64,000 nt of DNA from Alphaproteobacteria bacterium (GCA_963665325.3 CAXXWS020000003.1:960001-1024000); one strand, 5' to 3'; positions 25,703 through 64,000 are shown, counted from the first letter of the stretch. Notes: a model not told the origin generated them from the sequence alone. Numbers and translations: made by a program.

Positions 25703-25808
25703 TGGAGGACAACAAACCTTGCCCCCGCTTGCGAGCCCGGAGGCCACGCCTTGATTGGCAGGGACGGAAATGCCATGCCTTGCGGCAGTGCAAGCAGCGG
25801 GTGGCGGG

Positions 25809-27116: not shown

Positions 27117-28177
27117 CGGCCCTGCCCGCCGGCGCGATCGATTGCGACCTGCATCCGGCGCCGCCCTCTGTCTCGGCGCTAATGCCCTATCTGGAGCCGC
27201 ACTGGGCGGATGCGGCAGGGCATCGGGGGCTGCACGAGCTGGAGACCATCGCCTGGCCGCCCAATGCGCCGCTCTCCTGCCGGCCGGACTGGCGGGACGG
27301 GGAGGCGAAGCCCGGCAGCAATCCTGCACGCCTTGTTCGGGACGCGGTGGACGGCTTCGGTACCCGCTTCGCCATCCTCAACTGCCTCTACGGCGCGCCG
27401 ATGCTCTATTCCGAGGACATGGCTGCCGGCTTCTGCCGCGCGCTGAACGACTGGCTGAAGGCGGAATGGCTGGACCGCGACCCGCGCCTGCGCGCCTCCA
27501 TCCTCGTGCCGCCCCACGCGCCGGACCTTGCGGCAGAGGAAATCGAGCGCATGGCGGAAGACCGGCGCTTCGTGCAGGTGCTGCTGCCCGTCATGGGCGA
27601 GACGCCGCCCGGCCGGCGGGTCAACTGGCCGGTCTATGCCGCGGCCGAGCGGGCGGGCCTGCCGGTCGCCTTCCATGCCGGCTCCGCCTACCGCCACCCG
27701 CCGACGCCGGTCGGCTGGCCCTCCTATCTCGCCGAGGACTACGCCTCGCAGGCGACCGCCTTCCAGTCCGCGCTCACCAGCCTCATAACCGAGGGCGTGT
27801 TCCGGAAGTTCCCGGAGCTGACCGTCGTGTTCGCGGAATCGGGCGTCGCCTGGCTGCCGGCGCATCTCTGGCGGCTCACCAAATACTGGCGGGGCCTGCG
27901 CATGGAGATTCCGTGGGTGGACCGGAGCCCGGAGGAGATCGTGCGCGAGCGCGTGCGCCTGACCGTCCAGCCTTTCGACGCGCCGGAGGAGGCGGTGGCC
28001 CGCCTGCTCGAGCATCTGGGTTCCGACGACATGCTCCTGTTCGCCACCGACTACCCGCACTGGCAGTTCGACGGCATGGGCGCCCTGCCCGAAGGCTTGC
28101 CAGCCGAGCTGGTTCAGCGTATCGCAGTGGATAATCCGCTCGCTGTCTATACGCGCCTTGGGGAGGGAGAACCATGA
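27113..28177 (+). CDS. Amidohydrolase_2-fold metalloprotein (subunit 1 of a tandem pair)
   Basis: [21 protein letters not shown]; ATGA overlap with the upstream gene. Confidence 0.85.
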
Positions 28178-46160: not shown

Positions 46161-46248
46161 CCCCCCGAAACCGGCTCGGGCAGAATGCCATTCCGTCGCC
46201 GGTCTGTCTGCCTGGCCGGATGGCGGCATCCGGCCGTCGCGGGCCGGA

Positions 46249-49200
46249 TCACATGCTCCGGCCCTGGTCGATGTCCCGGCTGAGCGTCCTCTCCTGCTGG
46301 CGGTGGCGGCGCAATCTTTCGATATGCGCGTCGCGTTCGGCGGCGATATTGAGGAAGGTCTGCTTCTGTGTCTGCGAGAGGTGGAGGCTGGTGGCGAGTT
46401 CGCGCATGTCCTCGATGATGTTCGCGCCGGCGATGATGTCGAAGCGGCCGATGCGCCGGGTCTTCGCCTCCTCGCGTATCTCCTTCCATTGCGCCAGCAA
46501 CTCTCCGTAGCGCCTGACGGCCAGCGGCCACGCGATGTCGTGGTCGTGGACGTTCCCGTCGAGCTCCTTCTTCGCTGCGGCGCCGATATGCGGATTCCGG
46601 GAAAGCTTGCGGGCGCGCTCGACAAGCGGCCCGCAGCCCCGGTCCGCAAATGCCACCAGCCCCTTCGCCTCGACAGGCCCCCTGAATGCGTCCCAGTCGA
46701 GGCGCCACTTCTCGAAATCGTCGTGCGCGGCCGCGCGCTTGCGGGCGTTGTCGACCGCCGTATCGAGGCGCGTGCGGTGCTCCTCGCCGAGTTTCGGGTC
46801 GCGCGCCACCGCCTCCGCGCGGGAGAGCAGGGCATGGGGCCACGGGTCTGCGGGGTCCAGCGTCCGGACGGCCTGGAGCAGTGCGGTCGCCCGGCGCTCG
46901 CGCTCCCGGCCCAGGGCCTCTTCCAGCCGCCGGCGTTCTGTCCCGGAGAGGTCCCGGCTCCCGGTAAGCCTCTCGCCGCTCGCAAGCAGGCCGTTCATCT
47001 CGTCTGCCTCCCGCGTCCAGTTCCCGGTGCGAAGGCGGAACGCGATATCGTCGGCCTCCCGGCGCGCGGCGGTCGCGGCCTCGCGCGCCCGGTTGCGGCG
47101 GGCCTCGCGCTCCGCCCGTTCCGCCTCGACCCCGTCATGCGCGCGGAGCGCATCGAGAAGGTCCTGCCGCAGCGCCGGCGGCATGGCCGGGTCGGCGGAG
47201 AGCGAACGGCCCTTGCCGAGAGTGTCTTCGCTGCGCTCCGCCCTCTCTTCTTCTCCATCGCCGTTCCATGCCGCGAGCCATGCGGCGCCGGCCGTTTCCG
47301 CCTCCCCCCTCGCCTTCCAGTCGGCAAGCCTGATTTCGACATGGCGCCTGTTCAGGTTGCCGAGGTCCGGGTCGTCCATGATCGGCCTTGCCAGCCCGGC
47401 GAGACGGTCCGGTTCCTCCGCCCCGCCCGGCTCGTCAACGCGTTCCATGGCCTTCGTCCACCGGCCGTGCCAGTCGCGCACCCGCGCGTCGGCGGTCCGG
47501 GCGCGGAACAGTTCGTCGTCGCTGGAAAGCCGCAAGTCCGCGCGGGAGAGCATCGTCTTCAGCTCCTTCCTGCCGTCATCGCCGGGTAACGCAGGCGGGC
47601 CGTCGTCGGCCAGGACGGCACGCGCGGCCGTCGCGGCACTCTCCAGCTCCCGGCGCCACTCCGCATAGCCCGGACGGTCGACCGTGCGGCTCCTTTCCGC
47701 GCCGGGTAGAAGCGTGCCGCGCGCCTCCAGCCGCTGGCGAAGTTCCTGCAGGCAGGCGCTCACCCGCCCGGCGTCCATGTCCGCCAGCGCCGCCTCGACC
47801 GCCGCCCGCGTTTCGGGGGCCGCATCCTCGACCTCCGCGAGCGTCCACAGCTCCGCCAGCAGCCCGTCATGGCCGGCATGCAATGCGGGAAACACGCCCG
47901 CCTCCGCCGCCTCCCCGTCATGGCGGGCCTTCGACGCCCGCCACGCCTCGAAACGCCGTTCGGCGTCCTGAGCGGGCGCGAGCGCATCCGCCATTTCGGC
48001 GCGGACAGTCTCTTCCTGCGCCTCCGGCTTCAGCACCGGCGCCAGGGGCTGTTTTGCCGGAACCCGCAGCGGCGCGCGTACGGCGGTCTCCTCCTCCGGC
48101 AGGGCGATGTCCTCGCCGAGCGCCTCCAGCGCCGTCAGCCGCTCGCCGCTGTCCGCCTCCAGCGCCGCCGCCAGGCTCTCCCGGTCGTCGGTCAGCACCA
48201 CGGCGTTGTCCCGCGCCCGGCTGATCTGCACGTAGAAACTCTGCAGGCCGCCCAGATGACCGTGGCCCGCATCGGCGACCGCGATTACCCGGTCCCGCGT
48301 CATCCCCTGCGCGGCATGCACCGTCGAGGCCCAGGCATGCAGGATATGCCTGAGCTGCGGGTCGTCATGGCGCCATTCGAGCTCGCGCCCGTCCTCGGTC
48401 AGCAGCCGCAGCTTGCGGGGACCGATGGAGAGGATTTCGGCCGTGGCGCCATTGTCCAGGCCGCGCGCCCTGTCATTGCGGGTCCAGCGGATGCAGTCGC
48501 CGGCCCGGATGGAGATCGTCTGCGTCTCGTGCAGGTCCAGCCGGTAGCGGATCTCGCCCGCGGGCCGGATGCGCCGCGTCCTGCCGTCCGGATGCTCCAG
48601 CACCGCCCGGTCGCCCTCGAACCCCGTCACCGTGCAGGCGTCGCCGGCGCGGATCCGGAAGGGATAGATGTCCCTGTGGAAGACGGCGACGTCGCCCTCG
48701 CTCCAGTTGCGGATGTCGCCGGTCTCGGCGCGCGTCATGCGCAGCTTCGCCAGCGTCTCGATCTCCAGCACCCGCCCGTGCAGGACGCCCTCCACCTCCA
48801 GCCCCTCGCGCACCTCCTCCACGATCCCGCGCCGGAGTTCGTGCGTGGGCGCCAGTAGCAGCGTTTCCCTGCGCTCCTCCGGCGAGAGCTCCAGCCAGAG
48901 CCGCGCCGCCGTCTCCGCCAGCTCGTCGGCCGGCAACTCCACGACATTCTCCCCCAGAAGGTCGAGCGCCCGGCGCGGCTCGCCGGCCGCCGTGTGGACC
49001 ACGGCCCCCTTCAGGACCGGGTTGCGCTGCCGGCGGATGTCGTCCATCAGCGCCGTCGCCATGCCGGCCTCCTGGAGCTGCCGGAAGGGCTGGCCCGCCT
49101 CGACAGCCCTCAGCTGCTTGCGGTCTCCGACCAGCACCAGCCGTCCGACGCCGAGCTTCGCCGCGATCTTCATCAGCGCATGGGCCTGCGCCGTCGATAC

Positions 49201-50781
49201 CATCGACATCTCGTCGGCGACCAGGATGGTACCCTCGAAGCGTTTCCTGAGTTCCGCCAGCGCCCGGTCGTCGAGCAGGTTGTCGCCGGCATCGCGGTAG
49301 CGGGCGAGGAACCATTGCAGCGTGCGCACCGGGATGCCGGCCTCCCGGCCCAGCACGCCCGCCGCCACCGCCGACGGCGCCAGGCCGAACACGCGCCGGT
49401 CGCCCGCAAGCGCCGCCGCCTCCCTCAGCATGGTGGTCTTGCCCGTGCCGGCATAGCCCTGCACGCCCACCACGAGATCGTCATGCAGCAGAATGGTGCG
49501 CACCGCCTCTTTCTGCCCGTCGGTCAGCACCGATGCCGCCAGCCGGGCCTCGACCGGCTCTGCTTCGGTCAACGGTCCGCCTGCGCCCGCGCCTTCCCCG
49601 AGCAGCGCCAGCATGCCGCGCTCCGTCCTGACCGTCCGGTCGGTGACGAAGGCGCGCCCGCTCACCCCCCGGCGCACCGTCTCCAGCAGATGGCCGTCGC
49701 GCAGGAGCTGCGCGATCGCCTCGTCCACGTCCCGGATGGTGTAGCGGCCCGGCGAGTGGGCGAGGCAGCGCGTGACAAGGTCGTTGGCCGCAAACACCGA
49801 GCGGCGTTCCTCCAGATGCGCTGCGGCCCGGCAGGCGATCTCCAGCATCGAGAGCACGGGCGGCGGCTGCGTCCGCCGCTTGCGCGGCCTCGCGAGACCG
49901 AGTTCCTTCGCCCGCCCCCGCCAGAGCTCCTCCAGCGCCGCCCGGCCCGGCTCGTTCTTGCGCGCCCTGGTCGCCAGCGCCGCCTGCTGCGCCCGCGCCG
50001 CATTGTAGTTCCAGCCCTTCTCGCGGATATATTTCAGGATCGCCCGGCGCCGCTTGGAGAACACGAACACCTCGGCGCGCCTGTAGCCCGCAATCTCGAA
50101 GCTCGGCACCCCGCCCGCCATCGAGGGCGAGAGCGTATAGCCCCGCTCCATCAGCCGCCGCGCCAGCTCGTTGCGGTAAAAGGCTCCGATCGTCATCTCG
50201 GCCGACTTCAGCCGGCCCGTGTCGAGGCTCCGCCAGCGCCCCTCCGCGTCCTGCGTCATGTTGGCGACAACGGCATGCGTGTGCAGCTGCGGGTCCAGGT
50301 CCCGGCTCGCTATGTGCCGGAACGTCGCCGCCACCATCGAGGGCGAAGGCGCGCGCCGCATGCGCCTGAACTCCCGGTCCCACACGCGCGTCTCCAGCAG
50401 CCGCGCCTCGATGAAATCGAGTGTCGCCTTCACCGCCCCGTCATGCGCGCGCACCACGTCGTCACGGCCCCACAGCAGGCCCTCCAGCGAAACGGATTTC
50501 GGCGCCGAGAAGGTGATGTCGTGGCCGGGCTCGTGCTCCGTCTCGCCCTCGCGCGTCCGCCGCCCGAGGCGGATGTCCGTCTTCGGGACCTTCCCTTCCA
50601 GGATCGAGCGAAACCGTTTCGCGTCGACGCGGCCCTTCAGGCCCAGCGCCGCCGCGCCCGTCCCGTGCCAGCGGCTCGCCCGACGGTGCTCGGGATCGTT
50701 GCGCGCATAGTAGCCGCCCTCGCGCTCGAAATAGCGAACCGAGGCGGCCGCCGACCCCAGCCTGTTGACCTTGGCTACCAT
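46249..50781 (-). CDS. MOBF (TrwC/TraI-type) relaxase-helicase
   Basis: N-terminal YF..GGYY tyrosines, DITFSAPKSVS, H...RDLDPQLHTH, GYAGTGKT, DEMSM, GDRKQL, TVHAAQG, YVQISRAR. Confidence 0.95.
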   Translation of the reverse strand: MVAKVNRLGSAAASVRYFEREGGYYARNDPEHRRASRWHGTGAAALGLKGRVDAKRFRSILEGKVPKTDIRLGRRTREGETEHEPGHDITFSAPKSVSLEGLLWGRDDVVRAHDGAVKATLDFIEARLLETRVWDREFRRMRRAPSPSMVAATFRHIASRDLDPQLHTHAVVANMTQDAEGRWRSLDTGRLKSAEMTIGAFYRNELARRLMERGYTLSPSMAGGVPSFEIAGYRRAEVFVFSKRRRAILKYIREKGWNYNAARAQQAALATRARKNEPGRAALEELWRGRAKELGLARPRKRRTQPPPVLSMLEIACRAAAHLEERRSVFAANDLVTRCLAHSPGRYTIRDVDEAIAQLLRDGHLLETVRRGVSGRAFVTDRTVRTERGMLALLGEGAGAGGPLTEAEPVEARLAASVLTDGQKEAVRTILLHDDLVVGVQGYAGTGKTTMLREAAALAGDRRVFGLAPSAVAAGVLGREAGIPVRTLQWFLARYRDAGDNLLDDRALAELRKRFEGTILVADEMSMVSTAQAHALMKIAAKLGVGRLVLVGDRKQLRAVEAGQPFRQLQEAGMATALMDDIRRQRNPVLKGAVVHTAAGEPRRALDLLGENVVELPADELAETAARLWLELSPEERRETLLLAPTHELRRGIVEEVREGLEVEGVLHGRVLEIETLAKLRMTRAETGDIRNWSEGDVAVFHRDIYPFRIRAGDACTVTGFEGDRAVLEHPDGRTRRIRPAGEIRYRLDLHETQTISIRAGDCIRWTRNDRARGLDNGATAEILSIGPRKLRLLTEDGRELEWRHDDPQLRHILHAWASTVHAAQGMTRDRVIAVADAGHGHLGGLQSFYVQISRARDNAVVLTDDRESLAAALEADSGERLTALEALGEDIALPEEETAVRAPLRVPAKQPLAPVLKPEAQEETVRAEMADALAPAQDAERRFEAWRASKARHDGEAAEAGVFPALHAGHDGLLAELWTLAEVEDAAPETRAAVEAALADMDAGRVSACLQELRQRLEARGTLLPGAERSRTVDRPGYAEWRRELESAATAARAVLADDGPPALPGDDGRKELKTMLSRADLRLSSDDELFRARTADARVRDWHGRWTKAMERVDEPGGAEEPDRLAGLARPIMDDPDLGNLNRRHVEIRLADWKARGEAETAGAAWLAAWNGDGEEERAERSEDTLGKGRSLSADPAMPPALRQDLLDALRAHDGVEAERAEREARRNRAREAATAARREADDIAFRLRTGNWTREADEMNGLLASGERLTGSRDLSGTERRRLEEALGRERERRATALLQAVRTLDPADPWPHALLSRAEAVARDPKLGEEHRTRLDTAVDNARKRAAAHDDFEKWRLDWDAFRGPVEAKGLVAFADRGCGPLVERARKLSRNPHIGAAAKKELDGNVHDHDIAWPLAVRRYGELLAQWKEIREEAKTRRIGRFDIIAGANIIEDMRELATSLHLSQTQKQTFLNIAAERDAHIERLRRHRQQERTLSRDIDQGRSM

Positions 50782-52385: not shown

Positions 52386-52837
52386 CGGGGCAAGGTTGCG
52401 TTCGGGCGCGGCGCTATGGTTCGGGACGACAGCGTAGCGGGGCCGGGCGACCCATGCGAGCGCCCGCTCGGCATGGCGCGCAGGCCGGAACCGGACAGGC
52501 ATGCGCCGTTTCCGGCCGTCGCCAGGCGGACAATGCACAAGAGAGGCAAACCCGGCGAGTTGCGTTGAGCGTCGGTTCGAACCAGCTCGCGCTCCCGGTT
52601 CACCACTCGGCCAGCTTTGAAGGGAGGCTCGACGGCTCGCTCTCAGTGAGTATCGAGCACAATCGGGCCGACTAGCGTGCTCGACGCTCGTTGAGATCGG
52701 ACGCGGCAAGTTAAGGGTATAAGCCCCCTAGATTAGGTGCTGACCGGCGTCGAAGCGGCGCGCAACGCAATACCATTTCCGCATGGAGGTGGGGCGCCCG
52801 CACCGTGCGCATCGTGCATACAGCTACAATATCTTGG

Positions 52838-53761
52838 TCATGATTCGTCCCCTCGGTCGACCCCATTGGCGAAATACGCGAGGGCCTTCTGGAGATGGTC
52901 AGCCATTGCGTTTCCGGCTACGGTAGGTACGCGTTCTGCCGGAGCGACCAAGCAGAGTCGCAGCTCGGACATCCGCTTTCCTTCCAAGGGAACTGCGATC
53001 AGGCTCCCGTCTGCCAATGCTTCGGAGAACTCCAGCTTTGTAGAAAATGCAATCCCGGCACCTTGCAGTAGAAGGCGCTTGACCATCGCCCGGGTGTTGG
53101 AGACCGCTGCTGGCTTGTGCACCCTCCTGAATGCTTCCATCTCATTACCGACAACCAGCTCCATCGTGTCGACAGGGTCCTGGTAGATCAGACGGTGGGT
53201 GCCGCACTCCTCAAGACTGACGGAGGCGCGCGACGCAAGTTCGTGGTCCGGCCTCATAACGGCGCACATCGGACAATCGATGCGCTTGAGTACGGTGATG
53301 CCACGGCGGCAGACCGGGGAGAACGTCAAGCCGAGATCCGCGGTGCCCTGGCAGACAGAGTGCATGGCTTCAATCGAATCGCAGGCGGACACGCGGACCT
53401 GAGCCTTCGGATGCAGAGCAACGAATTGCGCTATCGCTTCGGGCAGAAACTGCACAGTGGGGTTGTCCAAGGTCGCAATACTCACGCCGCCGCTCACGAT
53501 GCCGCGCAGGTTGTCAATATCGCCGCGCAGCCGCGCGAAGTCGTGCAGCGTATCCCGTGCGTGGCGCAGCACCAACTTGCCTGCCTCGGTCAGCCGCATG
53601 CCCTCCGGGTGCCGTTCGAACAACAGCACGCCGAACTGATCCTCCAGCTTCAGGATTTGGCGGTTCACAGCCGACGCCGAAATATGAACCCTTTCCGACG
53701 CACGGCGGATCGACCCGTCCTCGGCCACCGCTTCGAAATAACGCAACACTGCTGCATGCAT
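52838..53761 (-). CDS. LysR-family transcriptional regulator
   Basis: LRYF..VA..GSIRRA..HISASAVNRQILKLE..G..LFER. Confidence 0.95.
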   Translation of the reverse strand: MHAAVLRYFEAVAEDGSIRRASERVHISASAVNRQILKLEDQFGVLLFERHPEGMRLTEAGKLVLRHARDTLHDFARLRGDIDNLRGIVSGGVSIATLDNPTVQFLPEAIAQFVALHPKAQVRVSACDSIEAMHSVCQGTADLGLTFSPVCRRGITVLKRIDCPMCAVMRPDHELASRASVSLEECGTHRLIYQDPVDTMELVVGNEMEAFRRVHKPAAVSNTRAMVKRLLLQGAGIAFSTKLEFSEALADGSLIAVPLEGKRMSELRLCLVAPAERVPTVAGNAMADHLQKALAYFANGVDRGDES

Positions 53762-53767
53762 CCTGCG

Positions 53768-54397
53768 TCAGCCCCCGTTGTCTTTGCTTGCAATGCCCGC
53801 AACTCTTTCAACCAACCAGTGGTATTCTTGAGGGCTGCGATTCAGCAAATGTCTAGTGGCTGCAATGCGATCTGTCAATCCCTTCTCCTGAGACATTTTC
53901 ACCCGACCCTCAATATCGTCGACGACAATTGTCACGCGACGGATCAAAGTTGACAACTGCCGAACTCGATTTTCAGTCTTGTCAAAAGTCCATCCCGCTA
54001 TGGCAGGCTCCAGTTGCCGTGTGAGGTGTTCGATATCCTCGAGAATTTCTGACCCTGGATTCTCGATCCTTGCGTGTCCCGTTACATGAACAGAAATATA
54101 ATTCCAGGTTGGCAACTGCCGCGTCGCGTACACAGTAGGGGAGACGTATGCATTGGGGCCAGAAAACACGACATAAACCGGACTCCCCTCCAATAACTCA
54201 ATTTGAGGATTAGATTGGTCCATATGTCCGAGGAGTTTCACCACTCCCGAACATTCACTGCTTACAATAAGCGGAATATGGCTAGCGGCGAACTCCTTGC
54301 CACTCCAAGTGACAATGAGGCCCAAGGGAAAGGCTTGTATGATCGACACCAAACAGTCCAAGTCTTCTTCTCGGTACACGTCGTAATGATAAGCCAC
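53768..54397 (-). CDS. PaiB-family heme protein, piperazate synthase (KtzT/PzbB)-like
   Basis: SHIPL, GHMDQSNPQ, FSGPNAYVSPTVY, PTWNY, KMSQE. Confidence 0.75.
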   Translation of the reverse strand: MAYHYDVYREEDLDCLVSIIQAFPLGLIVTWSGKEFAASHIPLIVSSECSGVVKLLGHMDQSNPQIELLEGSPVYVVFSGPNAYVSPTVYATRQLPTWNYISVHVTGHARIENPGSEILEDIEHLTRQLEPAIAGWTFDKTENRVRQLSTLIRRVTIVVDDIEGRVKMSQEKGLTDRIAATRHLLNRSPQEYHWLVERVAGIASKDNGG

Positions 54398-54585
54398 CTA
54401 CTTCCACCCTCTTCGTTGCTACGTTTTCCGACTAATCCGGCTCTCATGCTCAGACCTCAATTCTCAACTAACCTCGCCATTCCTTGACCATAATGTTAGT
54501 CCTCCTTCGAATCCAATAGATCGCAGCGGCCCTCGTCTCCCAGCCGATCCATAATACAGTTCAGCCCGGGCTTGACACTTTTCTT

Positions 54586-55605
54586 CTAGTCAGTGCAATA
54601 TCCCATAACCTCCTTATACAACCAATCTGGAACACACACACCATTTTCCCGAGTATAGTTTCTTACCGCATAACGTCTATCGGAGGGCAAGCGCGTCCCC
54701 TCTTCTTCCAGGATCTTCTCAAACAGCGACTCCGCATGCTGGAGATTGACAGAACCATCGTACGAATCTCCGAAGTGGGCCGGGTCCATCGCAATAATCA
54801 ATTCACCTCCTTCCGACGGCCCGCCATCGCTGTCATCGTCCTGGGCCGACTCGAAGCCGAACTTGCCTCCGCTGAGCCCAACCGCCAATAGCTCCACCAT
54901 CATTGCAATAGCGGCGCCCTTGTAGCCGCCGAAGGGCAACTGCGCACCTTCGAGGGCGGCGCCCGGGTCCGTCGTCGGCCGGCCATTGGCGTCAATGGCC
55001 CAGCCCTCCGGAACTCGTGCCCCATCGCGTTCCCGAATTTGAATTTCACCGCGCGCCGCGACGCTGGAAGACTGGTCGAAGATCATTGGCGCCTTGTCAG
55101 GCCGCGGCCACCCGAACGCCATGGGATTTGTCCCAAAAACTTTGTTGGTACCTCCCGCTGCGGCGACGAAGGAGCGAGAGTTCACGAACGCAAATGCTAC
55201 CAACCCCTCGCAAACTAGCGTATCGATATCGTACCACAGCACTCCGGACTGATATGCATTCGTGATCGGCATTGCCGCGACCCCTTGAGATCGTGCCTTG
55301 GCAGCCAAGAGCGGCCGCCCGACTACCATCGCCGCAGCTGCAAAGCCACGATGGGCGTCCACCTGGACAACGCCGGGAGACTTGTCATGCAATGTCGGCA
55401 CGGCTTTCCCGTTTGCGCGCCCACTTTTGACACAGGCGCAGTAGCCTGGCATCCTGAAAAGACCGTGCGTCTTGCAGCCATCCTGCTCCGCCAAGGTCAT
55501 TACATCGGCGAGCACGATGGCGTTCTCCTCGGAGAGGCCGGATTTGGTCAGTCCGCGCATGGCGATATCGCGAACCTCGTCGAGCGTCAGACTTACGCTA
55601 GTCAC
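54586..55605 (-). CDS. Ldh_2-family oxidoreductase (DpkA-like cyclic imine reductase/sulfolactate dehydrogenase family)
   Basis: THGLFRMPGY, FGTNPMAF, LPFGGYKG, RLPSDRRY. Confidence 0.88.
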   Translation of the reverse strand: MTSVSLTLDEVRDIAMRGLTKSGLSEENAIVLADVMTLAEQDGCKTHGLFRMPGYCACVKSGRANGKAVPTLHDKSPGVVQVDAHRGFAAAAMVVGRPLLAAKARSQGVAAMPITNAYQSGVLWYDIDTLVCEGLVAFAFVNSRSFVAAAGGTNKVFGTNPMAFGWPRPDKAPMIFDQSSSVAARGEIQIRERDGARVPEGWAIDANGRPTTDPGAALEGAQLPFGGYKGAAIAMMVELLAVGLSGGKFGFESAQDDDSDGGPSEGGELIIAMDPAHFGDSYDGSVNLQHAESLFEKILEEEGTRLPSDRRYAVRNYTRENGVCVPDWLYKEVMGYCTD

Positions 55606-55644
55606 TGCATTCTCTCCAATGGGTAGCGGGGTGCGGAATCCTGC

Positions 55645-56529
55645 CTAGCGTGGGCTAGTCTCTAATCTGCGGTTGAACGACTTGCCCGGTTTCGGTTTTG
55701 CATTTGCTGTCGGCTCGTCAATCAGATTTTGAAACTGGGAAGGCTTATAGTGGGTTGCATAGATCATGACACCGACAAAAGTAAGCCCACCTACGAGATT
55801 GCCGATCAAGGTCGGAATCTCATTCCAGAGGAGGTAATCCACCCAAGTGTAACTGCCGCCGAGCATGATACCAGAAGGGAAAAGGTACATGTTTACAATG
55901 GAGTGTTCGAAACCAAGATAGAAGAAAATTAAAATTGGCATCCACATGCCGATTACTTTTCCGGAAACGGACGTAGACATCATCGCGGCGACAACACCTG
56001 TCGAAACCATCCAGTTGCACATGATAGCCCGAACAAACAGGGTCAACATTCCCGCGTAGTCGGCGTCGGCGTATCCAAGCGTACGCATTTCCCCGATCCT
56101 ACCAATTTTCTGACCTACTGCATTCGGGTCTTTGCTGAACCCCATCGTGAATACAACTGCCATCAAGGACGCAGTTGTGAGCGCTCCAGCGAGGTTTCCG
56201 AGGAAGACCAATGTCCAATTTCGTAGTAGCTTGGGAAAGGTTACACCGGGACGACGTGCAAAGAGAGCAAGTGGCACCAACGTAAACACGCCTGTCAACA
56301 AATCATAACCCAGAAGATAGATCATACAGAACCCAACCGGGAAGAGCAGAGATCCGAGTAAGAAACTACCAGTGTCAACCGCAATCGTTATGGCAAATGC
56401 CGCAGCTAGAGCTAAAATCGCACCGGCCATATATGCTCTGATAAGGGTATCCTTGGTCGACATAAATGCCTTGGATTCACCTGCCTCGATCATTCTTGTG
56501 GCAATTTCCCGGGGCGTGACATAGGACAT
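55645..56529 (-). CDS. Formate/nitrite transporter (FNT) family
   Basis: LFPVGF, DLLTG, GNLAG, CNWMV, GFEHSIVNM, GNLVGG. Confidence 0.93.
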   Translation of the reverse strand: MSYVTPREIATRMIEAGESKAFMSTKDTLIRAYMAGAILALAAAFAITIAVDTGSFLLGSLLFPVGFCMIYLLGYDLLTGVFTLVPLALFARRPGVTFPKLLRNWTLVFLGNLAGALTTASLMAVVFTMGFSKDPNAVGQKIGRIGEMRTLGYADADYAGMLTLFVRAIMCNWMVSTGVVAAMMSTSVSGKVIGMWMPILIFFYLGFEHSIVNMYLFPSGIMLGGSYTWVDYLLWNEIPTLIGNLVGGLTFVGVMIYATHYKPSQFQNLIDEPTANAKPKPGKSFNRRLETSPR

Positions 56530-56657
56530 GGGGAGTGCTTCTCCAATTAAAGCAAGGCGGCACTTGCTTCCTGTGTTCGTGGTAGCCGGCTGGCCATTGA
56601 AAGGCGGATGTTCTGAAGTTTGCGCCGGGAACCGGCATTGCTTCGCACCTCGGCAAG

Positions 56658-57860
56658 TTATCGGCGGGCTCGATAAGAAAGGTACGCTGCGCTCAATGCG
56701 AGGGCGGCCGCAGCAAGCTGGAAAGCGTGGTTGATTCCGTTTACTTGAGATACCAGGAGCGCAACTAGCACTGATGGCACCACCGGGCCGGTCAGTTGTC
56801 CGATCGCGAAAGCGGCAGTCATATAACCCAGTACCTCGGTCGCGCGTCCCCGTGCGCGCGACCGCACTTCCTGTAGCGCGACTGTGGTCGTGACCATGAA
56901 AGTGCCGCCCACGAATAGCGCGGTAATTGCGATCGAGGTTGGCGTCAGCCAGATGCTCGGCATGAGAACGCCGAGCGCCATGATGAGGTGGGTGACGGCC
57001 CACACGCGCAGGCGGTTCATCCGCTTGAGTACGCGTGCGGCTACGATAGTGGAAACTAGGGATGCCAACCCGAACAATGGCCAAGCGAGGCCGAATATTC
57101 GCGGCTCATCAACAATGTTGCGGGCAAGCGTGGGAAGGAATGTGGCTGGCAGGATATAGCCGAGCCCCATGACCCCATAGCAGACTACGAGACCTGCAGT
57201 GCTGCTACCGGGTCCAGTTGAAGCGCCTACCCCCCGGAGGGCGCCGGTGGAGGGAACCCGGGGACCTCTACTCAGCAATAGCGACGGCACGATGGCGACC
57301 GCCGCCAAGGCTCCCAGCCCGAGCCAAAGCCATTGCGTCGAGACGCCCGGGCCGGCGGCAACGACACAGTAGAGGCCTACTGTCGCAATGCCGAGGCCGG
57401 TGCCGCCATAGATCACTCCGGCGAGGTCCGAGCGTTGCGCCGACGCCAACCGATCCAACGCCCACGCGCTGGTCAGGACAAAAGCCCAAGCGCTAAAGAC
57501 ACCCGCCGCGAACCGCAAGACAAGCCATGCCGCCATATCCAGGCTGTCGGAGCCCCCCATGGCAGTTGTGACGGCAACGATAGCGGCCAGACTGCCGCGC
57601 AGCAGAATCTGCGGCTTGACGCGAACCCAGCTCACCGTTAGCGCGCCGAGCACGTAGCCGAAGTAATTGCTACCGGCCAACCATGCGCCGGCGTTCAGGT
57701 CAAGCAGGTCATCCCGGATCATGAGGGGCAACAGGGGCGTGAACGCGAATCGGCCAATACCCATCGAGACTGCGACCTCTACCATTGCAAGAAGGCAGAC
57801 GGCAGCAGCAGTACGCGTTCCCAAGCGCGTCTGTCGGATAAAATCCAGGTTTATGCGCAT
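56658..57860 (-). CDS. MFS transporter (YbfB/YjiJ-like)
   Basis: MGIGRFAFTPLLP, NYFGY, GLGYILPATFLP, GGTFM. Confidence 0.9.
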   Translation of the reverse strand: MRINLDFIRQTRLGTRTAAAVCLLAMVEVAVSMGIGRFAFTPLLPLMIRDDLLDLNAGAWLAGSNYFGYVLGALTVSWVRVKPQILLRGSLAAIVAVTTAMGGSDSLDMAAWLVLRFAAGVFSAWAFVLTSAWALDRLASAQRSDLAGVIYGGTGLGIATVGLYCVVAAGPGVSTQWLWLGLGALAAVAIVPSLLLSRGPRVPSTGALRGVGASTGPGSSTAGLVVCYGVMGLGYILPATFLPTLARNIVDEPRIFGLAWPLFGLASLVSTIVAARVLKRMNRLRVWAVTHLIMALGVLMPSIWLTPTSIAITALFVGGTFMVTTTVALQEVRSRARGRATEVLGYMTAAFAIGQLTGPVVPSVLVALLVSQVNGINHAFQLAAAALALSAAYLSYRARR

Positions 57861-57917
57861 GTTTACTCGGCCTCGGACCAACGTTTCACACACCACCGAT
57901 TCGGCTCTTCACGAAAT

Positions 57918-59636
57918 TCAGGCCACCCCGGCTCCTTGGTCCTTCAGGATCGTCGCGAACTTGGTGCGCAATTCGCGCTTGAGCACTTTCCCTGTGACCC
58001 CGACCGGGAAATTCTGCGGCTCCAACGCCACTTGGACGGCTGCCAGAGGCTCGAGGCCGGCCGTCGAGAGTTGCTCGTTAAAGTACGCGAGCAACCGATG
58101 TTCCGATGGAACCTCTGGGCCTTTCCGGGGACGGATGATGGCAATCGGCTTTTGTCCGAAGCCATTATGGCTCGGGACGCCGACGACGGCGCAATCGTGA
58201 ACGATGTCCCCGCAGTCGGCCAACAGCACTTCTTCGATCAGCAAGCTGTAGACCGCCTCGAACGCGCCATCTATGACATCGACTGTGCGATCCAGGTGAT
58301 AGAAGCGGCCGTCTTCGTCCCGGCGGGCCACATCCCCCGTCAACCAGTATCCGCCAAGCTCGAACCTCCCGGTCAGCTCCCGGTCGTTCCAATATCCCGG
58401 CGTAAGGCTCGGTGTCTTGAGAGCTAGCAGGCCCGGTGCTCCGACAGGCAGCTCCGCTCCGGTTTCGTCAACGACCGTGGCGTGCTCGACCACGCCGATA
58501 GGCACTCCGATACAGCGATCGTTTCGTTCGGTCTCCATCGTGAACAGCTGCCCGAACAGGGACAGCCCCAGTTCCGACGAGCCGAAGCCGTCGATGAACT
58601 GGGAACCCGGCTGCGCCGCATCGCCCGCGTCGCCCTCTGTAAGCAGCGCCGGCTTTATCAGGCCGGCCGGCCGCTGGCCCATCGTGACGAGCCGCCGGAT
58701 ATGCCCATAGTGCGCGCTGTCCCCCATGTTGATCCAGGTATGGACCGAGGCGCAGGCCTCGGCGGGCAACGGATCGGCCGACAGTTCGACAAAAGTGCGT
58801 GGGAATGACAGCACGATTGTCGGCTCGAATACCATCATGACGGGCTCGACGACCACGCGCCGCCAATCCGACATGACGACTGTCGGCAAGCCCATGAGAA
58901 CCGCCGTCATGAAGTAGCTCAGCCCGCCCGCGTGTGTATGCGGCACGAGTGACATCAAGCGGTCGTACGGCTCTGCGGGCAAACGGATTAACCGGGGCTC
59001 CTTCCCAATCCAGAACTGCTTGTGGCCGGCCATGGTGGGCTTCGGCACTCCCGTCGTGCCGGACGAGTGGACGAGTGCAACGATGTCGTCTTCCTCGTGC
59101 AACACGGGAAATGGCGATGGCAGCGCTCCCTGTTCCTGGTGCGCGTTTAACTCCGACAGTGCCGAAATGAATCGCGGCCGGTAACGCTGTCTGCTGCGAA
59201 ATGCGGCCTTGAAGCCCGTCGGGTCGTCACACACCAGCCCAACCGCGCCCACATTCTCCAGATAGCTGCACGCCGCGGCGAGAGGCATGGCATTGTTGAT
59301 CAGGCCACAGATGGCGCCCAAGGCGGAGACCGCCAGGCACTGGAGCATCGGGTCGACGCCTTCGCTGACATACACCCCGACAACGTCGCCCTTCCGGACG
59401 CCATTGGCGTGGTACCATCGGGCATACCGGTCGCGCACGGCCACGAGGTCATCGAGGCTATACCCCGTCAGGTCGACACGGCCATGAGAGTCGAATCGGT
59501 GCCTGAAAATGAACGGCACGCTACGGTTCGGATTGAGCCGGACCGCCCAATCCAGAAAGTTCCCCGTGCCGAGAGCGGGTTCCTCCACCAACTGGCGTCG
59601 AACTTCGATCGGCGCAATCGAGCTATGCTGTGCCAT
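57918..59636 (-). CDS. Stand-alone class I adenylate-forming (ANL) ligase
   Basis: HSSGTTGVPK, GFGSSE, TGD, LDR, PVGVTGKVLKR. Confidence 0.9.
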   Translation of the reverse strand: MAQHSSIAPIEVRRQLVEEPALGTGNFLDWAVRLNPNRSVPFIFRHRFDSHGRVDLTGYSLDDLVAVRDRYARWYHANGVRKGDVVGVYVSEGVDPMLQCLAVSALGAICGLINNAMPLAAACSYLENVGAVGLVCDDPTGFKAAFRSRQRYRPRFISALSELNAHQEQGALPSPFPVLHEEDDIVALVHSSGTTGVPKPTMAGHKQFWIGKEPRLIRLPAEPYDRLMSLVPHTHAGGLSYFMTAVLMGLPTVVMSDWRRVVVEPVMMVFEPTIVLSFPRTFVELSADPLPAEACASVHTWINMGDSAHYGHIRRLVTMGQRPAGLIKPALLTEGDAGDAAQPGSQFIDGFGSSELGLSLFGQLFTMETERNDRCIGVPIGVVEHATVVDETGAELPVGAPGLLALKTPSLTPGYWNDRELTGRFELGGYWLTGDVARRDEDGRFYHLDRTVDVIDGAFEAVYSLLIEEVLLADCGDIVHDCAVVGVPSHNGFGQKPIAIIRPRKGPEVPSEHRLLAYFNEQLSTAGLEPLAAVQVALEPQNFPVGVTGKVLKRELRTKFATILKDQGAGVA

Positions 59637-59670
59637 AGCGCTCTCTCCTCTTTGGTCGGGATTGTCCGCC

Positions 59671-60948
59671 TCAGGCGGCCGGACTTAACTGTCTTCTCGA
59701 AAGCTCGCCGGTGACAGCTTCAGCAATTCGGGAAAGGCCATCCGACAGCGCCGCCTCCGTGATCGTCAGGGGCGGCATAACCTTCAGGACCTCGTCCCGC
59801 GCGCCGCATAACTCCACGATCACCCCGGCGCGATATGCGCGTTCGGCCGCCCCTTTCGCCATGCTCGGGTCGTTGGGCCACGCCAGCCCCTGCAGCATGC
59901 CCTTGCCACGGACCTCCGCATCACCGGCCTGGACCGCGACCTCCGATAACCGCGACCGGATCAGGGCGCCCTTTTGGTGCACGCTGGCTTCGAAGTCGGG
60001 ATTCCGCCAAAAACGTAACGCTTCAGCGCCGGCGACAAACGCCAGGTTGTTTCCGCGAAACGTACCATTGTGCTGCCCCGGTTCCCACACGTCCACTTCC
60101 GGCCGGATCAACAGCATCGCCATGGGCAAGCCAAAACCGCTGATCGACTTCGCCAAGCATACAATGTCGGGCTCGAGGTCAGCGCGTTCGAAGCTGAAGA
60201 ACGGTCCGGTTCGGCCGCAACCGGTCTGGATCTCGTCGACGATCAGCAACGCCCCTTGCTTTCTCGCCAACGCCTGAAGGCGCTGAAGCCAGTCAACGCT
60301 CGCCTCGTTGAGCCCTCCTTCCGCCTGCAGTGTTTCGACTATGATTGCCGCAGGCGGGTCGATCCCACTGCCCGGGTCGTCCAACAGCGTCTCGACGTAC
60401 TCCAGCGTATCCACATTGGAACCCAAATAGCCATCGAAAGGCACCCGGTCCACTGCCGCGTACGGCACTCCCCCACCGCTTCGCTTCCGTCGCGCACCGG
60501 AAACGGCAAGCGCACCCAACGTCATCCCGTGAAAACTGTTCGTAAACGCCAGAATGTTCGTTCTTGATGTAACGCGTCGAGCCAGCTTCAAAGCTGCTTC
60601 GACAGCGTTCGTACCCGTGGGGCCGGTGAACTGCATCTTGTAGTCAAGTCCACGGGGCGAAAGAACTCCATCTTGCAGTTCCTGCATGAACTCTCGTTTT
60701 GCCTCCGTGTGCAGGTCCAGCGAATGCGTTATACCGTCCGTAATCATGTAGCCGACGATTTTGCTACGTATCTGCCGATTGTTATGTCCATAATTCAAAG
60801 CGCCTGCGCCCGACAGAAAATCCAAATAGGAAGTTCCGTCGACATCGATTAGAGTATGTCCGGTCGCCTTTTGAAAGAGCGCCGGAAAATCCCGACAGTA
60901 AGACCGAACCACCGATTCAAGTTGGTCGAAGATCACCGTGCCGTCCAT
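59671..60948 (-). CDS. ectB: Diaminobutyrate--2-oxoglutarate transaminase (EctB-like), without ectA/ectC
   Basis: ESVVRSYCR, DFLSGAGALNYGHN, GPTGTNAVEAALK, QAEGG, DEIQTGCGRTG, AKS, HNGTFRGNN. Confidence 0.9.
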   Translation of the reverse strand: MDGTVIFDQLESVVRSYCRDFPALFQKATGHTLIDVDGTSYLDFLSGAGALNYGHNNRQIRSKIVGYMITDGITHSLDLHTEAKREFMQELQDGVLSPRGLDYKMQFTGPTGTNAVEAALKLARRVTSRTNILAFTNSFHGMTLGALAVSGARRKRSGGGVPYAAVDRVPFDGYLGSNVDTLEYVETLLDDPGSGIDPPAAIIVETLQAEGGLNEASVDWLQRLQALARKQGALLIVDEIQTGCGRTGPFFSFERADLEPDIVCLAKSISGFGLPMAMLLIRPEVDVWEPGQHNGTFRGNNLAFVAGAEALRFWRNPDFEASVHQKGALIRSRLSEVAVQAGDAEVRGKGMLQGLAWPNDPSMAKGAAERAYRAGVIVELCGARDEVLKVMPPLTITEAALSDGLSRIAEAVTGELSRRQLSPAA

Positions 60949-61550
60949 TTGGGCCTCAGCCTCCCTTTTTTTCCCAGGTATGCTACCCAACTTTTCTGTT
61001 TGCGTAGCTGAACCATCATTTACCACTCATCCGGTCTTCGTCGAGCCACATCTTCGCGCTTCCAATCATGACCCGATGAACTTCATTCCCACAGTCTCTA
61101 GTGCGCCGTAGGCGTCTTCATCTCTACTTTCCAAGTGTGCTTATGGTCCGAAGTTGGCGTGAACGCCATAACCTTAATTGGCTCGCCCCCCTCCCTGCCG
61201 TCGACTTAATTGCGACAACCTCCGCAGAGGCTCGATGATACTCGCCCGAACAGGCGGTTCCGAGCCCATCCATCCGCGAGCCTCATCGCTGCCCTCCTCG
61301 ACCCAAGTTCGACTGGCCGTCGTGGGGAACCCGCCCAGGGGTCCGAACTATCTTGTCACGATGAACTCCCATCCCGTTGCGAAAAATGTAACGCTGTGAA
61401 GAGCGCTTTGTATTGCATTAGACCGGCCCAATGTGCTTCGATGGGCTTGGCGGGCTTCACGCAGGGGAAGCTCTGCTGTGCTGCAACATCAATTGGTGAA
61501 TGCCCGCCGGACTGCTAGTCGGCCGGCGTTGAAAACAGTGGGAGACGAAA

Positions 61551-62888
61551 TTGGAAGCTTCCTCAACACGGCCTATCTTCGATGTTGTGGGCATTGGTTT
61601 TGGACCGGCGAACATCGCGCTTGCTATTGCGCTCCAGGAGCGACGCGACCCGCTGTCGGTGTTGTTTTTGGAAAAATCCAGCGAACCCGGTTGGCAAGCC
61701 GCGATGTTGCTGGACGGTTCAGACATTCAAAACAGCGCTCTGCGCGACCTTGTCACCCCGCGCAATCCGAGAAGCCGATACTCGTTCACAAATTTCTTGT
61801 TTGAGCAGGGGCGACTATTCGAATATCTCAACCTGGGCCTCGAGTTCCCGCTGAGAAAGGAATACGCTCAGTATGTTTCATGGGTGGCTCGCCAGTTTGA
61901 CGGACAGGTTTGCTATCGAGAGGAAGTGCGGCATCTTAGTATAGCAGGCACAGGCGGATCCGCGTGCTTTTCCATAACCACAGCAGGAGGCAGGACCTTC
62001 TTAGCCCGAAGCCTAGTTGCCGCGCCCGGCCGTACGCCGCTTATTCCGGAGGTGTTTAGAGGAACGGAAGGCGAGCGAGTATTCCACTTCACGCAGTATG
62101 CTCCGATGTTGAAGAAGTTAAAGCTGGGGACGGGCGAAGGTAAGCGTGCCGGTGTCGTAGGAGGAAGTCAAAGTGCTGTGGAGATCATTCTCGACCTGGC
62201 GTCTCGGTATCCGGAGATCGAGATCGTTAATGTACAGCGAGGGTTCGGGTTTTCTCTGAAAGATACAAGCCCTTTTAGCGACCATGTGTATTTCCCGGAG
62301 CATGTTGACTATTATTTTAATGCATCACAGAAAAGCAAGGCAAGCATTGATGCCCAGTTGAGGCGCACAAATTACTCGTCTGCAGACGGAGATGTGATTC
62401 GCCAACTGTATCTCGCCATTTATGAACAGAAATTGGACGGAAGGGAGAGGATACAGGTATTGAACAATACAAAAGTTAGTGGGGTGAAGAAAGGAGAAGA
62501 CGGTCTTGTGATTCAGGTGGAGGAAATTCACCAGGGGCAACTCGCTTCGGTTGAGCTTGATTTTGCGGTACTCGCAACAGGATTCCGTAATCTTGGACCG
62601 GCGGAGAATCAAGAGTTAGTTCCGCCTTTGCTCCTGCCGGTTGAAGGCTACCTGAGCAAGAGCCCACAGGGAGTACTTGAAATATCTCGGGATTACAGGT
62701 TGCTCGCCGCGAATCCAGAAGACCCGTTGCCACCGCTGTACCTGAATGGATTGTGTGAAACAACACACGGAATGGGAGATGCAGGGTCCTTTAGTTTGTT
62801 GTCGCTTCGAAGCGAACTCATTGCCCGGTCCGTTAGTGATGCTCTGACTGATTGTTCGCTGGTAGGCTCCTCTCCTTTAGGCTCCTGA
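61551..62888 (+). CDS. Flavin-dependent amine N-hydroxylase (SidA/IucD/PvdA/KtzI family)
   Basis: GIGFGPANIALA FAD motif, DLVTPRNPRSRYSF, GGSQSAVE NADPH motif, TNYS, LATGF; TTG start. Confidence 0.93.
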   Translation: MEASSTRPIFDVVGIGFGPANIALAIALQERRDPLSVLFLEKSSEPGWQAAMLLDGSDIQNSALRDLVTPRNPRSRYSFTNFLFEQGRLFEYLNLGLEFPLRKEYAQYVSWVARQFDGQVCYREEVRHLSIAGTGGSACFSITTAGGRTFLARSLVAAPGRTPLIPEVFRGTEGERVFHFTQYAPMLKKLKLGTGEGKRAGVVGGSQSAVEIILDLASRYPEIEIVNVQRGFGFSLKDTSPFSDHVYFPEHVDYYFNASQKSKASIDAQLRRTNYSSADGDVIRQLYLAIYEQKLDGRERIQVLNNTKVSGVKKGEDGLVIQVEEIHQGQLASVELDFAVLATGFRNLGPAENQELVPPLLLPVEGYLSKSPQGVLEISRDYRLLAANPEDPLPPLYLNGLCETTHGMGDAGSFSLLSLRSELIARSVSDALTDCSLVGSSPLGS

Positions 62889-63541
62889 ATAACTGTCCTG
62901 GTTTTAAGGCACGAGAGCGGTAGCAGCTCGGTAGGAGGCGTAGGGGGGAGTCATCGGATCGTGTCGTCAGGGGCCGGCGATGGAACCAACAGAGCTAAGG
63001 TCGGAAGGCGGACGGGTGGCTCTGAGGGGCCCTGACAATGCGGGCGGGCTAGGTGGCCAGTTCCTGCTGGTGAGACCGCATTGGCGAGGTGGCGGTTATG
63101 ATCGGAGTGTTGCAATGAGGGAGAAGGAGTGGGCGCGATGTCAGGACAAGGGCAGGTTCTACTGGCGGCAAGCATTTGCTGTGCTCTCTCTGGCGCGTAC
63201 GTAGTCATCGCTAAAGTGGATACGAATGCAGGCTTCGTTGATAAAATGGGCGCATTAGCGGGACCTTATATCGCTGGCGGACTAGTCGGTTGGGTAACAC
63301 CCTTGGTACGGACCGAATCTGTGGACAATTCCCTACCATAGGTGACGTTGTCGTACACTTTTCCCGCCGAAGACGACGGGGCAGTGCAACAGAAGTTAGA
63401 CGGCTGTATGAATGAGGTAAATAGCCTAGGGGATTCGGTCTACGCGGTGTAGTCGAGCCGGTGGTGCCCAGGGGGCGATAGGCGGCACCGTTGTCGACAT
63501 GGAGGCGCTGTGGCAGGCCGCGCCGGATCGGCGCGTTCCTG

Positions 63542-63944
63542 AACGCCTATCGCATCGACCTCACCGGCGAGTCACAGCGAAAGCGCAACAAGCTGACCTC
63601 GCTCGAAGGCGGCAACAAGAAATGAGGGAGCCCCGGCCTGGCGGCCGGGGTCCAGCGGTGCCTGCGGCGCCGGACCCGGCCGCAACACCGTGCAAGCGCC
63701 CCGGCATGCCCTATGAAGGGGCTTGCCGGGGCGTAGGATACGCCTTTGCATGACAAACAGGGCTCGCTTACGCTCGCAACCGGCTGGCCTCCGGCCAGCC
63801 CCCTGAAACCACCAACGGAGACCCACAGACCCACACACCAAGACACGGGAGAGACCCAAAACCGGCGCCGCACCGGCCGTCAAATGGCCAGGAACCGCAG
63901 TCAAATAAAATAGGAATCCGCTGTCAAGTCCGCAGGAATGCGCA
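63542..63944 (+). mobile_element. IS21-family remnant (istB 3' end and right terminus)
   Basis: 63542-63625 reads NAYRIDLTGESQRKR..., the IstB C-terminal pattern; three GTCAA..AGGAA repeats at 63879-63944 ending GGAATGCGCA. Confidence 0.75.
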
Positions 63945-64000
63945 AGCGGCGGCCTCGACTGGCGATCCGTCGCCGCCGCGCGCGCCGAAGCGGCCTCGGG

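Follow-up and report, generated by a model that had tools for sequence, protein, structure and literature searches.

A PaiB-family protein encoded beside an N-hydroxylase and a diaminobutyrate transaminase: a candidate heme-dependent N-N cyclase

The PaiB-like protein and its described relatives

The canonical piperazate synthases KtzT, PipS, LnzB, and SbPZS are heme b enzymes of the PaiB family (Pfam PF04299) that convert N5-hydroxy-ornithine to piperazate. Published work is cited here by PMC number. Two other described members of the family do not cyclise. NohD of Actinomadura luzonensis, which has His57, Thr98, and Lys167, was reported by Higgins et al. to dehydrate N5-hydroxy-ornithine without cyclisation, and the Thr/Lys pair was described as conserved across most of PF04299 (PMC12576811). 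Similarly, PaiB of Geobacillus carries all three residues and binds heme b, yet Huang et al. report that it made no piperazate in vitro (PMC12603108), and PMC13274692 contains the same statement. Here we describe a PaiB-like gene at positions 53768-54397 of a 64,000-nucleotide stretch of chromosomal DNA from an Alphaproteobacteria bacterium (CAXXWS020000003.1:960001-1024000), which as a whole is called the window below. We rate the chances as about even that its product is a heme enzyme cyclising N4-hydroxy-diaminobutyrate to 5-azaproline, and not a transcription factor. For this protein we show membership of the family, conservation of the key residues, the fold, a place in the tree, and a neighbourhood that is conserved.

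53768-54397, minus strand: PaiB/PF04299-family protein of 209 amino acids (P0001, the query), predicted to use heme b and assigned to the HxD/LPT supergroup

The coordinates of the open reading frame (ORF) include the stop codon. Its GTG start comes straight after an in-frame TAG, and a purine-rich, Shine-Dalgarno-like stretch (GAGGG/GGTGGAAG) lies upstream. The protein matched PF04299 (FMN_bind_2) over residues 3-160 with an E value of 2.9e-36 (125 bits), so the motif match to the family is not due to chance; an NCBIfam search returned no model for it. An earlier note on this DNA, which gives no strand for the gene, had read piperazate-synthase-type motifs in the protein, and a script located all of them at the claimed positions: GHMDQSNP at 57-64 with His58, YVSPTVY at 84-90, PTWNY at 96-100 with Thr97, and KMSQE at 167-171. 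The key residues are H58 (the predicted axial ligand), D60, Y8, Y90, L95, T97, R144, K167, and E171. His58, Thr97, Lys167, Tyr90, Tyr8, and Glu171 aligned with His72, Thr113, Lys184, Tyr105, Tyr7, and Glu188 of LnzB, the roles of which have been described (PMC12603108). H58 and K167 were invariant and T97 was at least 90% conserved in an 86-row alignment (A2). Because the His is conserved and every solved member binds heme, the query probably binds heme b as well.

The AlphaFold2 model of the query had a pLDDT (predicted local distance difference test score) of 93.6, and its TM-scores (template modelling scores) against heme-bound LnzB, SbPZS, PipS, KtzT, NohD, and PaiB were 0.73-0.83. The bit scores against solved chains were 79.8 for PaiB (2ol5), 73.4 for LnzB (9kea), 72.8 for NohD (9oqs), 71.3 for SbPZS (9qlk), 69.7 for KtzT (9jn4), and 63.2 for PipS (9ebk), which places the query at about equal distance from all of them. 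The query resembles the canonical synthases in Pfam family, split-barrel fold, and N-hydroxylase partner. Like them it also has the axial His, the dyad of Thr and Lys, a Tyr in the N-terminal loop, the Tyr of SPxVY, and the Glu four residues after the Lys (K+4). Its 63-73 bits to the synthase chains nevertheless contrast with the 154-184 bits to the four solved synthases given by P0206, a Nocardia protein that served as the anchor of the canonical clade.

The diagnostic value of these motifs was then judged from column counts over 420 aligned rows, in which positions 60 and 95 serve to delimit the "generic" and "D/L" groups, which makes those two columns circular for these groups. In generic PaiB rows the His (141/141), Thr (140/141), Lys (140/141), and Tyr90 (141/141) were near-invariant. 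Since His, Thr, and Lys are near-invariant across PF04299, and PaiB itself has them and binds heme, the residues His58, Thr97, and Lys167, which the earlier note had counted as synthase evidence, are not diagnostic. The other part of that evidence stood: position 89 was Trp in 105 of the 141 generic rows, while Val, Leu, Ile, Ala, and Thr together made up 109 of the 120 synthase-like rows, and K+4 was Asn in 131/141 generic rows versus Glu in 115/120 synthase-like rows, so that SPxVY and the Glu at K+4 do discriminate. Of the four motifs in the note, two are therefore informative and two are not. The motifs that the note gives for generic PaiB agree with Geobacillus PaiB 2ol5 (GHFARSNP, YISPSWY, PTWNY, and KLSQN); the corresponding motifs of LnzB 9kea are GHLNLMNP, YVSPTVY, PTWDF, and KLSQE. 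At the second residue after the His (H+2) the query has Asp and not the Asn of the synthases, a difference that the note does not point out. The note had also predicted that automated annotation would call the protein a transcriptional regulator. Indeed, relatives, canonical synthase relatives included, are named "FMN-binding negative transcriptional regulator" or "transcriptional regulator" in their sources.

Gene neighbourhood and proposed reaction

The neighbourhood of the gene is the strongest evidence for an enzyme working with an N-hydroxylase. The genes concerned are as follows.

61551-62888, plus strand: flavin N-hydroxylating monooxygenase of the lysine/ornithine N-monooxygenase family (PF13434, E 3e-85), divergent from the operon
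59671-61026, minus strand: EctB-type L-2,4-diaminobutyrate:2-oxoglutarate transaminase (NF006733, 617 bits, cutoff 438; TIGR02407, 594 bits, cutoff 552)
57918-59636, minus strand: ANL-superfamily enzyme, placed by NCBIfam and PDB scores with the nitrite-activating diazotases/N-nitrosylases (Tri17, CmaA6, AvaA6, CreM)
56658-57896, minus strand: MFS_4 (YbfB-type) transporter (PF06779, E 7.6e-66)
55645-56529, minus strand: formate/nitrite transporter (FNT) family channel (PF01226, E 2.4e-64; TIGR00790)
54586-55605, minus strand: Ldh_2-family oxidoreductase nearest DpkA (PF02615, E 1e-89; PDB 1wtj/2cwh, 237.5 bits)
52838-53761, minus strand: LysR-family regulator, following the PaiB-like gene on that strand after 6 bp

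The minus-strand operon runs from the transaminase through the ANL enzyme, the MFS_4 transporter, the FNT channel, and the DpkA-like protein to a 188-bp gap, followed by the PaiB-like gene and the LysR gene. The start of the FNT channel was re-set to the ATG at 56529, since the longest ORF overlaps the MFS gene. Counts from promoter and terminator scans were not above those of shuffled sequences (6 versus 4.5 +/- 2.0; 8 versus 10.7 +/- 3.0), and no promoter is claimed in the 188-bp gap. The best PDB matches of the N-hydroxylase were NbtG-type lysine N6-monooxygenase, PvdA, MbtG, and KtzI (208-246 bits). The sole close solved relative of the Ldh_2 protein was DpkA, a delta1-piperideine-2-carboxylate/delta1-pyrroline-2-carboxylate reductase (next hit, 134.5 bits), and such a neighbour fits a cyclic imino-acid intermediate. 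Pfam and NCBIfam searches of the operon found no decarboxylase, nonribosomal peptide synthetase (NRPS), or ornithine-related gene. A rhizobactin-type siderophore route, in which a transaminase and an N-hydroxylase also occur, was considered and rejected, the operon having neither a decarboxylase nor an IucA/IucC-type gene.

We compared this arrangement with 80 related genome loci, which were retrieved with a pattern containing QLPTWN, so that Leu95 is present in these rows by construction. An N-hydroxylase gene lay within 10 kb of the PaiB-like gene in 14 of the 80. The 11 loci nearest the query (L001-L011) include one uninformative 2-kb contig (L008), leaving ten readable loci (L001-L007 and L009-L011), which cover Alpha- and Betaproteobacteria. 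All ten had both an N-hydroxylase (44-62% identical to that of the window) and a diaminobutyrate transaminase beside the PaiB-like gene. The transaminase is EctB-type in the window, in L001 (Bradyrhizobium), and in L002 (Denitrobaculum), and dat/PRK06938-type in the two Burkholderiales loci that were scanned, L006 and L009 (TIGR00709, 505-520 bits; cutoff, 401.6). The recruitment of two transaminase subfamilies for one substrate indicates diaminobutyrate as the precursor. The ten loci also share a Rieske/VanA_C oxygenase, 48-65% identical to those of L001 and L002, whereas none of them has the ANL ligase, FNT, or DpkA-like genes with the core genes.

Further genes were seen around the relatives. 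L001 encodes a pipecolate-oxidase-like DAO protein (190 bits to AmaA, below cutoff), and a related DAO protein occurs in L002. The Burkholderiales loci (e.g., L006, 3699-12076) also encode a monooxygenase of HpaB type, an ATPase like ZapE/AFG1, a tautomerase, and an exporter of TauE type; for each of these the whole window lacks a homologue. The L001 locus of Bradyrhizobium sp. BR 10289 (10004-12016, plus strand) has the PaiB-like domain and an MFS transporter in one ORF, and the same fusion was found in a 665-residue library representative (P0077), so that the enzyme there is physically tied to an exporter or importer.

Among the other full-flank loci (n = 65), an N-hydroxylase was present in four (L034, L043, L074, and L080). 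In three of these (L034, L043, and L074) N-hydroxylase and PaiB domain form a single protein, and NRPS genes follow. Fusions of this kind also accounted for 6 of the best 150 among 4066 family representatives taken from a library of 1.84 billion proteins, all of them in the supergroup of the query. With regard to gene structure, L034 (8687-19793) and L074 (3014-14913) encode N-hydroxylase-PaiB didomain proteins with NRPS modules after them, and the fusion P0124 (2336 residues) runs on into adenylation, condensation, and carrier domains. A Pseudoalteromonas luteoviolacea locus with a fusion also has heme-oxygenase-like, PhzF-like, and cupin genes. The earlier claim that the protein is an enzyme and not a regulator is thus carried mainly by the conserved neighbourhood and by the N-hydroxylase fusions in the supergroup; the motif argument originally given for it holds in part.

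By analogy with PipS, KtzT, and LnzB (mechanism per PMC12603108 and PMC11705231), we propose that the query, as a member of the PaiB/piperazate-synthase superfamily, acts as a homodimer and depends on heme b. The EctB-type transaminase would convert aspartate semialdehyde to L-2,4-diaminobutyrate, and the divergent flavin monooxygenase would hydroxylate its N4. The hydroxylamine nitrogen would then bind the heme iron opposite His58, and the Thr97/Lys167 dyad, from the partner subunit, would protonate the leaving hydroxyl, with departure of water. Attack of the alpha-amine on the activated nitrogen would give a five-membered N-N ring, 5-aza-L-proline (pyrazolidine-3-carboxylate). Here heme binding, the substrate, and, above all, N-N closure over dehydration are what we infer. 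KtzT and PAI2 already form the five-membered ring from N4-hydroxy-diaminobutyrate in a side reaction (PMC11705231; PMC12150314), and natural didomain chimeras of an N-monooxygenase and a piperazate synthase make piperazate in vitro, according to a review citing Hu et al. 2019 (PMC11705231). Less direct support for the azaproline reading comes from the cyclic-imino-acid enzymes found with the gene, the DpkA-like protein in the window and the DAO proteins in L001 and L002.

Clade placement, cyclase determinants, and rival explanations

The phylogenetic position of the query was examined with 75 word-index homologues, the 80 genome loci, 120 relatives of P0206, and the 150 library representatives. 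A quick tree of 157 rows contained, in full, the clade of the query, the Burkholderiales-type and fusion rows, and the other D/L representatives. Flavobacterial loci (12), generic rows (35), and synthase-like rows (25) were sampled at random for it; P0002, identical to the query, and fragments shorter than 150 residues were left out. A careful tree of 75 rows (LG+G4, with ultrafast bootstrap and Shimodaira-Hasegawa-like approximate likelihood ratio test) also left out P0088, P0123, P0159, P0133, and P0080 (long or fragmentary) and L074 (identical to P0108).

In the careful tree the canonical synthase-like rows formed a clade (100/96) sister to the NohD-like rows, with which they were joined at 100/99. 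The query fell apart from these, in a supergroup (100/98) that is recognised by His-x-Asp and Leu-Pro-Thr and hence termed HxD/LPT. It belongs there by clade, by Asp at H+2, and by its residue before Pro-Thr, for which Leu, Phe, or Tyr is characteristic. Its own clade (99/94) was sister to a Burkholderiales-type clade (100/99; joined at 99/97), and the other half of the supergroup consists of a flavobacterial clade and the N-hydroxylase-fusion clade. The quick tree agreed on all of these groupings. An approximately unbiased (AU) test rejected the union of the query's clade with the canonical synthases (log-likelihood difference 64.6, p 0.0046). The query also fell outside the generic PaiB rows in both trees. 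The tree comparison suggested in the earlier note, in which grouping with non-catalytic PaiB would have spoken against an enzyme, thus placed the query with neither PaiB nor the canonical synthases.

The tight clade of the query is small. Among the 75 word-index homologues, 12 full-length relatives and one 133-residue fragment were at least 50% identical to it, and the next were at most 39% identical. The closest metagenomic relatives are P0003 (87%) and P0004 (72%), and just 5 of the 4066 library representatives had E values of at most 1e-30. From these comparisons the query appears to lie in an unstudied branch apart from the known piperazate synthases. Some member of the supergroup may already have been assayed: AwPZS and PspPZS, distant synthases that were tested, rejected N5-hydroxy-ornithine (PMC12150314).

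Sites that shift NohD towards piperazate synthesis have been identified by Higgins et al. (PMC12576811). They were read in the query from HMMER alignments to LnzB and NohD together with the column counts.

HP1 (N-terminus): PipS MFVPSY; NohD MHVFPR; query MAYHYD
HP2: PipS Asn68; NohD Ala59; query Asp60; Asn in 119/120 synthase-like rows
AS1: PipS Tyr155; NohD Arg144; query Arg144, aligned to LnzB Tyr161 and NohD Arg144
AS2: PipS Ala105; NohD Val96; query Leu95; Ala in 110/120 and Ser in 9/120 synthase-like rows
AS3: PipS EQPAEV; NohD DLDAER; query EKGLTD

The query has none of the Asn (HP2), the Ala (AS2), and the carboxylate-binding Tyr (PipS Y155, LnzB Y161) of the canonical synthases, and begins with MAYHY instead of MFVP. 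It has kept Glu171 (E in 115/120 synthase-like rows), Tyr8 (Y in 120/120), and Tyr90. Together with its position outside the KtzT/PipS clade in both trees and the AU test, the missing determinants leave the label KtzT-type, taken from the earlier note, unsupported. The canonical systems differ from the query in setting, too: its host is proteobacterial, no NRPS is present, and the precursor gene indicates diaminobutyrate and not ornithine. V96A was needed for any piperazate formation by NohD, and A105V lowered piperazate in PipS (PMC12576811). In the same paper it is argued that the synthase Asn pushes a heme propionate towards the substrate amine; Asp60, of similar size, could act likewise. 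The idea that Leu95 replaces Ala as an adaptation to the shorter diaminobutyrate was dropped, as NRPS-linked fusions and flavobacterial orphans also have Leu95.

NohD resembles the query in its near-identical numbering (H57, T98, R144, and K167), its bulky residue before Pro-Thr, and its YVSPTVY. It differs in the MHVFPR N-terminus, Ala59, Val96, Asp171, its place in the canonical synthase/NohD clade, and a cluster described as having no N-hydroxylase (PMC12576811); of the features that define the NohD type, Arg144 alone is common to both. PaiB of Bacillus/Geobacillus (2ol5, 9vyc) shares the fold and the His, Thr, and Lys with the query, but has Ala at H+2, Val before Pro-Thr, SPSWY, Asn at K+4, and no N-hydroxylase partner. 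More generally, the generic signature (Ala/Ser at H+2, Val before Pro-Thr, SPxWY, and Asn at K+4) is replaced in the query by D60, L95, V89, and E171. The fusion proteins (P0085, P0099, P0103, P0108/L074, P0124, P0179, L034, and L043) have the HxD/LPT signature and lie in the same supergroup, but belong to another sub-clade and are fused, NRPS-linked, and marked by Asp at K+4 and a YPP N-terminus, whereas the query is encoded by a stand-alone gene and has Glu171 and a YHY N-terminus.

Several observations weigh against N-N closure by the query. The residues shown to favour closure over dehydration in PipS and NohD are missing, with Asp60, Leu95, Arg144, and MAYHYD in their place, and the fold comparison cannot tell cyclase, dehydratase, and PaiB apart, as all gave TM-scores in one range. 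The D/L/R signature also occurs away from N-hydroxylases: all 12 sampled flavobacterial loci, which form their own clade, have it, and the 61 remaining full-flank loci have no N-hydroxylase within 10 kb. The substrate of the N-hydroxylase in the window is deduced solely from the neighbouring transaminase, and the chimeras of Hu et al. may lie outside the HxD/LPT supergroup. Finally, the Rieske oxygenase conserved in the relatives has no homologue anywhere in the window, which indicates that the window pathway differs from theirs.

Some of these points lead to the main rival, which we consider unlikely, namely that the query is a NohD-like heme N-hydroxylamine dehydratase giving an imine that falls to aldehyde and ammonia, with no N-N bond; in a variant, the query would form a cyclic imine as substrate for the DpkA-like reductase. 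The adjoining imine reductase homologue agrees with such a product, and Arg144 matches R144 of NohD, while bulky Leu95 is nearer to Val96 of NohD than to Ala105 of PipS, the very position at which V96A and A105V have the effects described above. Moreover, PipS itself merely dehydrates several non-native hydroxylamines (PMC11705231). However, the query lies outside the NohD clade, NohD-like proteins and canonical synthases being set apart together at 100/99, and an N-hydroxylase is kept in all ten readable loci. Asp60 has the size of the synthase Asn, unlike Ala59 of NohD, and Leu95 and Arg144 occur in the NRPS-linked fusions as well. Dehydration of N4-hydroxy-diaminobutyrate would, in addition, be a futile cycle, because it would regenerate aspartate semialdehyde, the substrate of the transaminase itself.

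Quite improbable in our estimation is a true N-N cyclase acting on another substrate, either N5-hydroxy-ornithine to give piperazate or N-hydroxy-1,3-diaminopropane to give pyrazolidine, with the transaminase serving elsewhere. The best solved relatives of the N-hydroxylase do act on lysine and ornithine, and piperazate synthases accept several N-hydroxy-diamines (PMC12150314), but two subfamilies of diaminobutyrate transaminase are conserved beside the gene pair, and the operon contains no decarboxylase, NRPS, or ornithine-related gene. That the query is an ordinary PaiB-type protein, of regulatory or other role, standing beside a LysR gene by chance, is very improbable. Its top solved match is PaiB 2ol5, its relatives are named regulators by their sources, and the neighbours of flavobacterial supergroup members (L013, L025, and L050 were scanned) are unrelated and varying; on the other hand, PaiB, LnzB, NohD, and PipS give similar scores (63-80 bits), the generic residues and SPxWY are missing, both trees place the query outside generic PaiB, the synteny is kept across two proteobacterial classes, and even Geobacillus PaiB is a heme protein (PMC12603108). 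The remaining probability, beyond azaproline synthesis and these three rivals, is left to chemistry not envisaged here.

Few enzymes form N-N bonds, and those that do are of interest as biocatalysts; the published cyclase rules for PaiB-fold heme proteins (Asn, Ala, and Tyr) derive from one actinobacterial clade. At the rule sites the query has Asp, Leu, and Arg, and its lineage is a second one that occurs together with N-hydroxylases. If it cyclises, the rules would not be general and a native five-ring (azaproline) synthase would become available; no native pathway to azaproline/pyrazolidine-3-carboxylate was found in the literature searched, which excludes most subscription journals. Since the clade is rare and uniformly annotated as a regulator, genome mining overlooks it.

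Nitrite-linked genes and genomic setting of the cluster

The ANL enzyme scored 311 bits against the NCBIfam AvaA6 diazotase model, below the cutoff of 975 (next model, 152). In the PDB it matched 9xb8 (291 bits), 8tf7/9bq0 (248 bits), and 8ztz/9ijf (245 bits), the last of which is presumably CmaA6; ordinary CoA ligases reached at most 76 bits. The structures 8tf7/9bq0 have been identified as Tri17, and enzymes of this group activate nitrite in an ATP-dependent manner to diazotise amines, whereas Tri17 N-nitrosates hydrazones and hydrazines (PMC11705231). The FNT-family channel is encoded two genes away from the ligase. Because no CreE/CreD-type nitrite-making genes were seen in the window, nitrite would need to be imported.

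In a speculative continuation of the azaproline reading, DpkA-like redox chemistry at a ring C=N would come first, after which the Tri17-like ligase would carry out an N-nitrosation dependent on nitrite imported by the FNT channel. The operon would in this way feed a cyclic hydrazine or hydrazone into a second N-N step. In its fullest form, a dedicated azaproline synthase, of a lineage apart from KtzT and native to N4-hydroxy-diaminobutyrate, would make the cyclic hydrazine, the DpkA-like enzyme would oxidise it to a cyclic hydrazone, the ligase would N-nitrosate the hydrazone, and the product, an N-nitroso-pyrazoline or triazene-type compound, would be exported by the MFS pump. Two N-N bond-forming systems in series in a horizontally acquired operon, ending in a metabolite with three contiguous nitrogens, appear unlikely to us. 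With the Tri17-like ligase and the nitrite channel alongside, the operon is a concrete candidate for new N-N-N chemistry.

The window is chromosomal, containing dnaK, dnaJ, rho, and a methylmalonyl-CoA mutase gene. Its GC content is 65-73% up to 52 kb, except for a single 2-kb segment at 44-46 kb with 61%, and 54-63% over 52-64 kb. The following genes lie just to the left.

46249-50781: TrwC relaxase-helicase, directly left of the low-GC region
42327-43664 and 43680-46985: McrBC pair, left of the cluster

Because of the drop in GC content and the TrwC relaxase and McrBC genes at its left, the cluster looks horizontally acquired and resembles an integrated mobile element (42327-64000). Rfam and tRNA scans of the window gave no match, so a tRNA-linked island border was not found, and a megablast search of the cluster (52800-63000) against a plasmid collection gave no match. 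Beyond the N-hydroxylase gene, 62900-64000 holds short ORFs only, with composition-driven translations and no Pfam, tRNA, or Rfam match, and the right end of the cluster may lie within it.

Elsewhere in the window, 10 of 11 consecutive long ORFs at 17989-28134 had no Pfam family, the sole match being a PIN domain at 23953-24387. Spurious ORFs are common where GC content is high, and some of these may be of that kind. An AbiEii-type toxin gene is located at 13352-14254.

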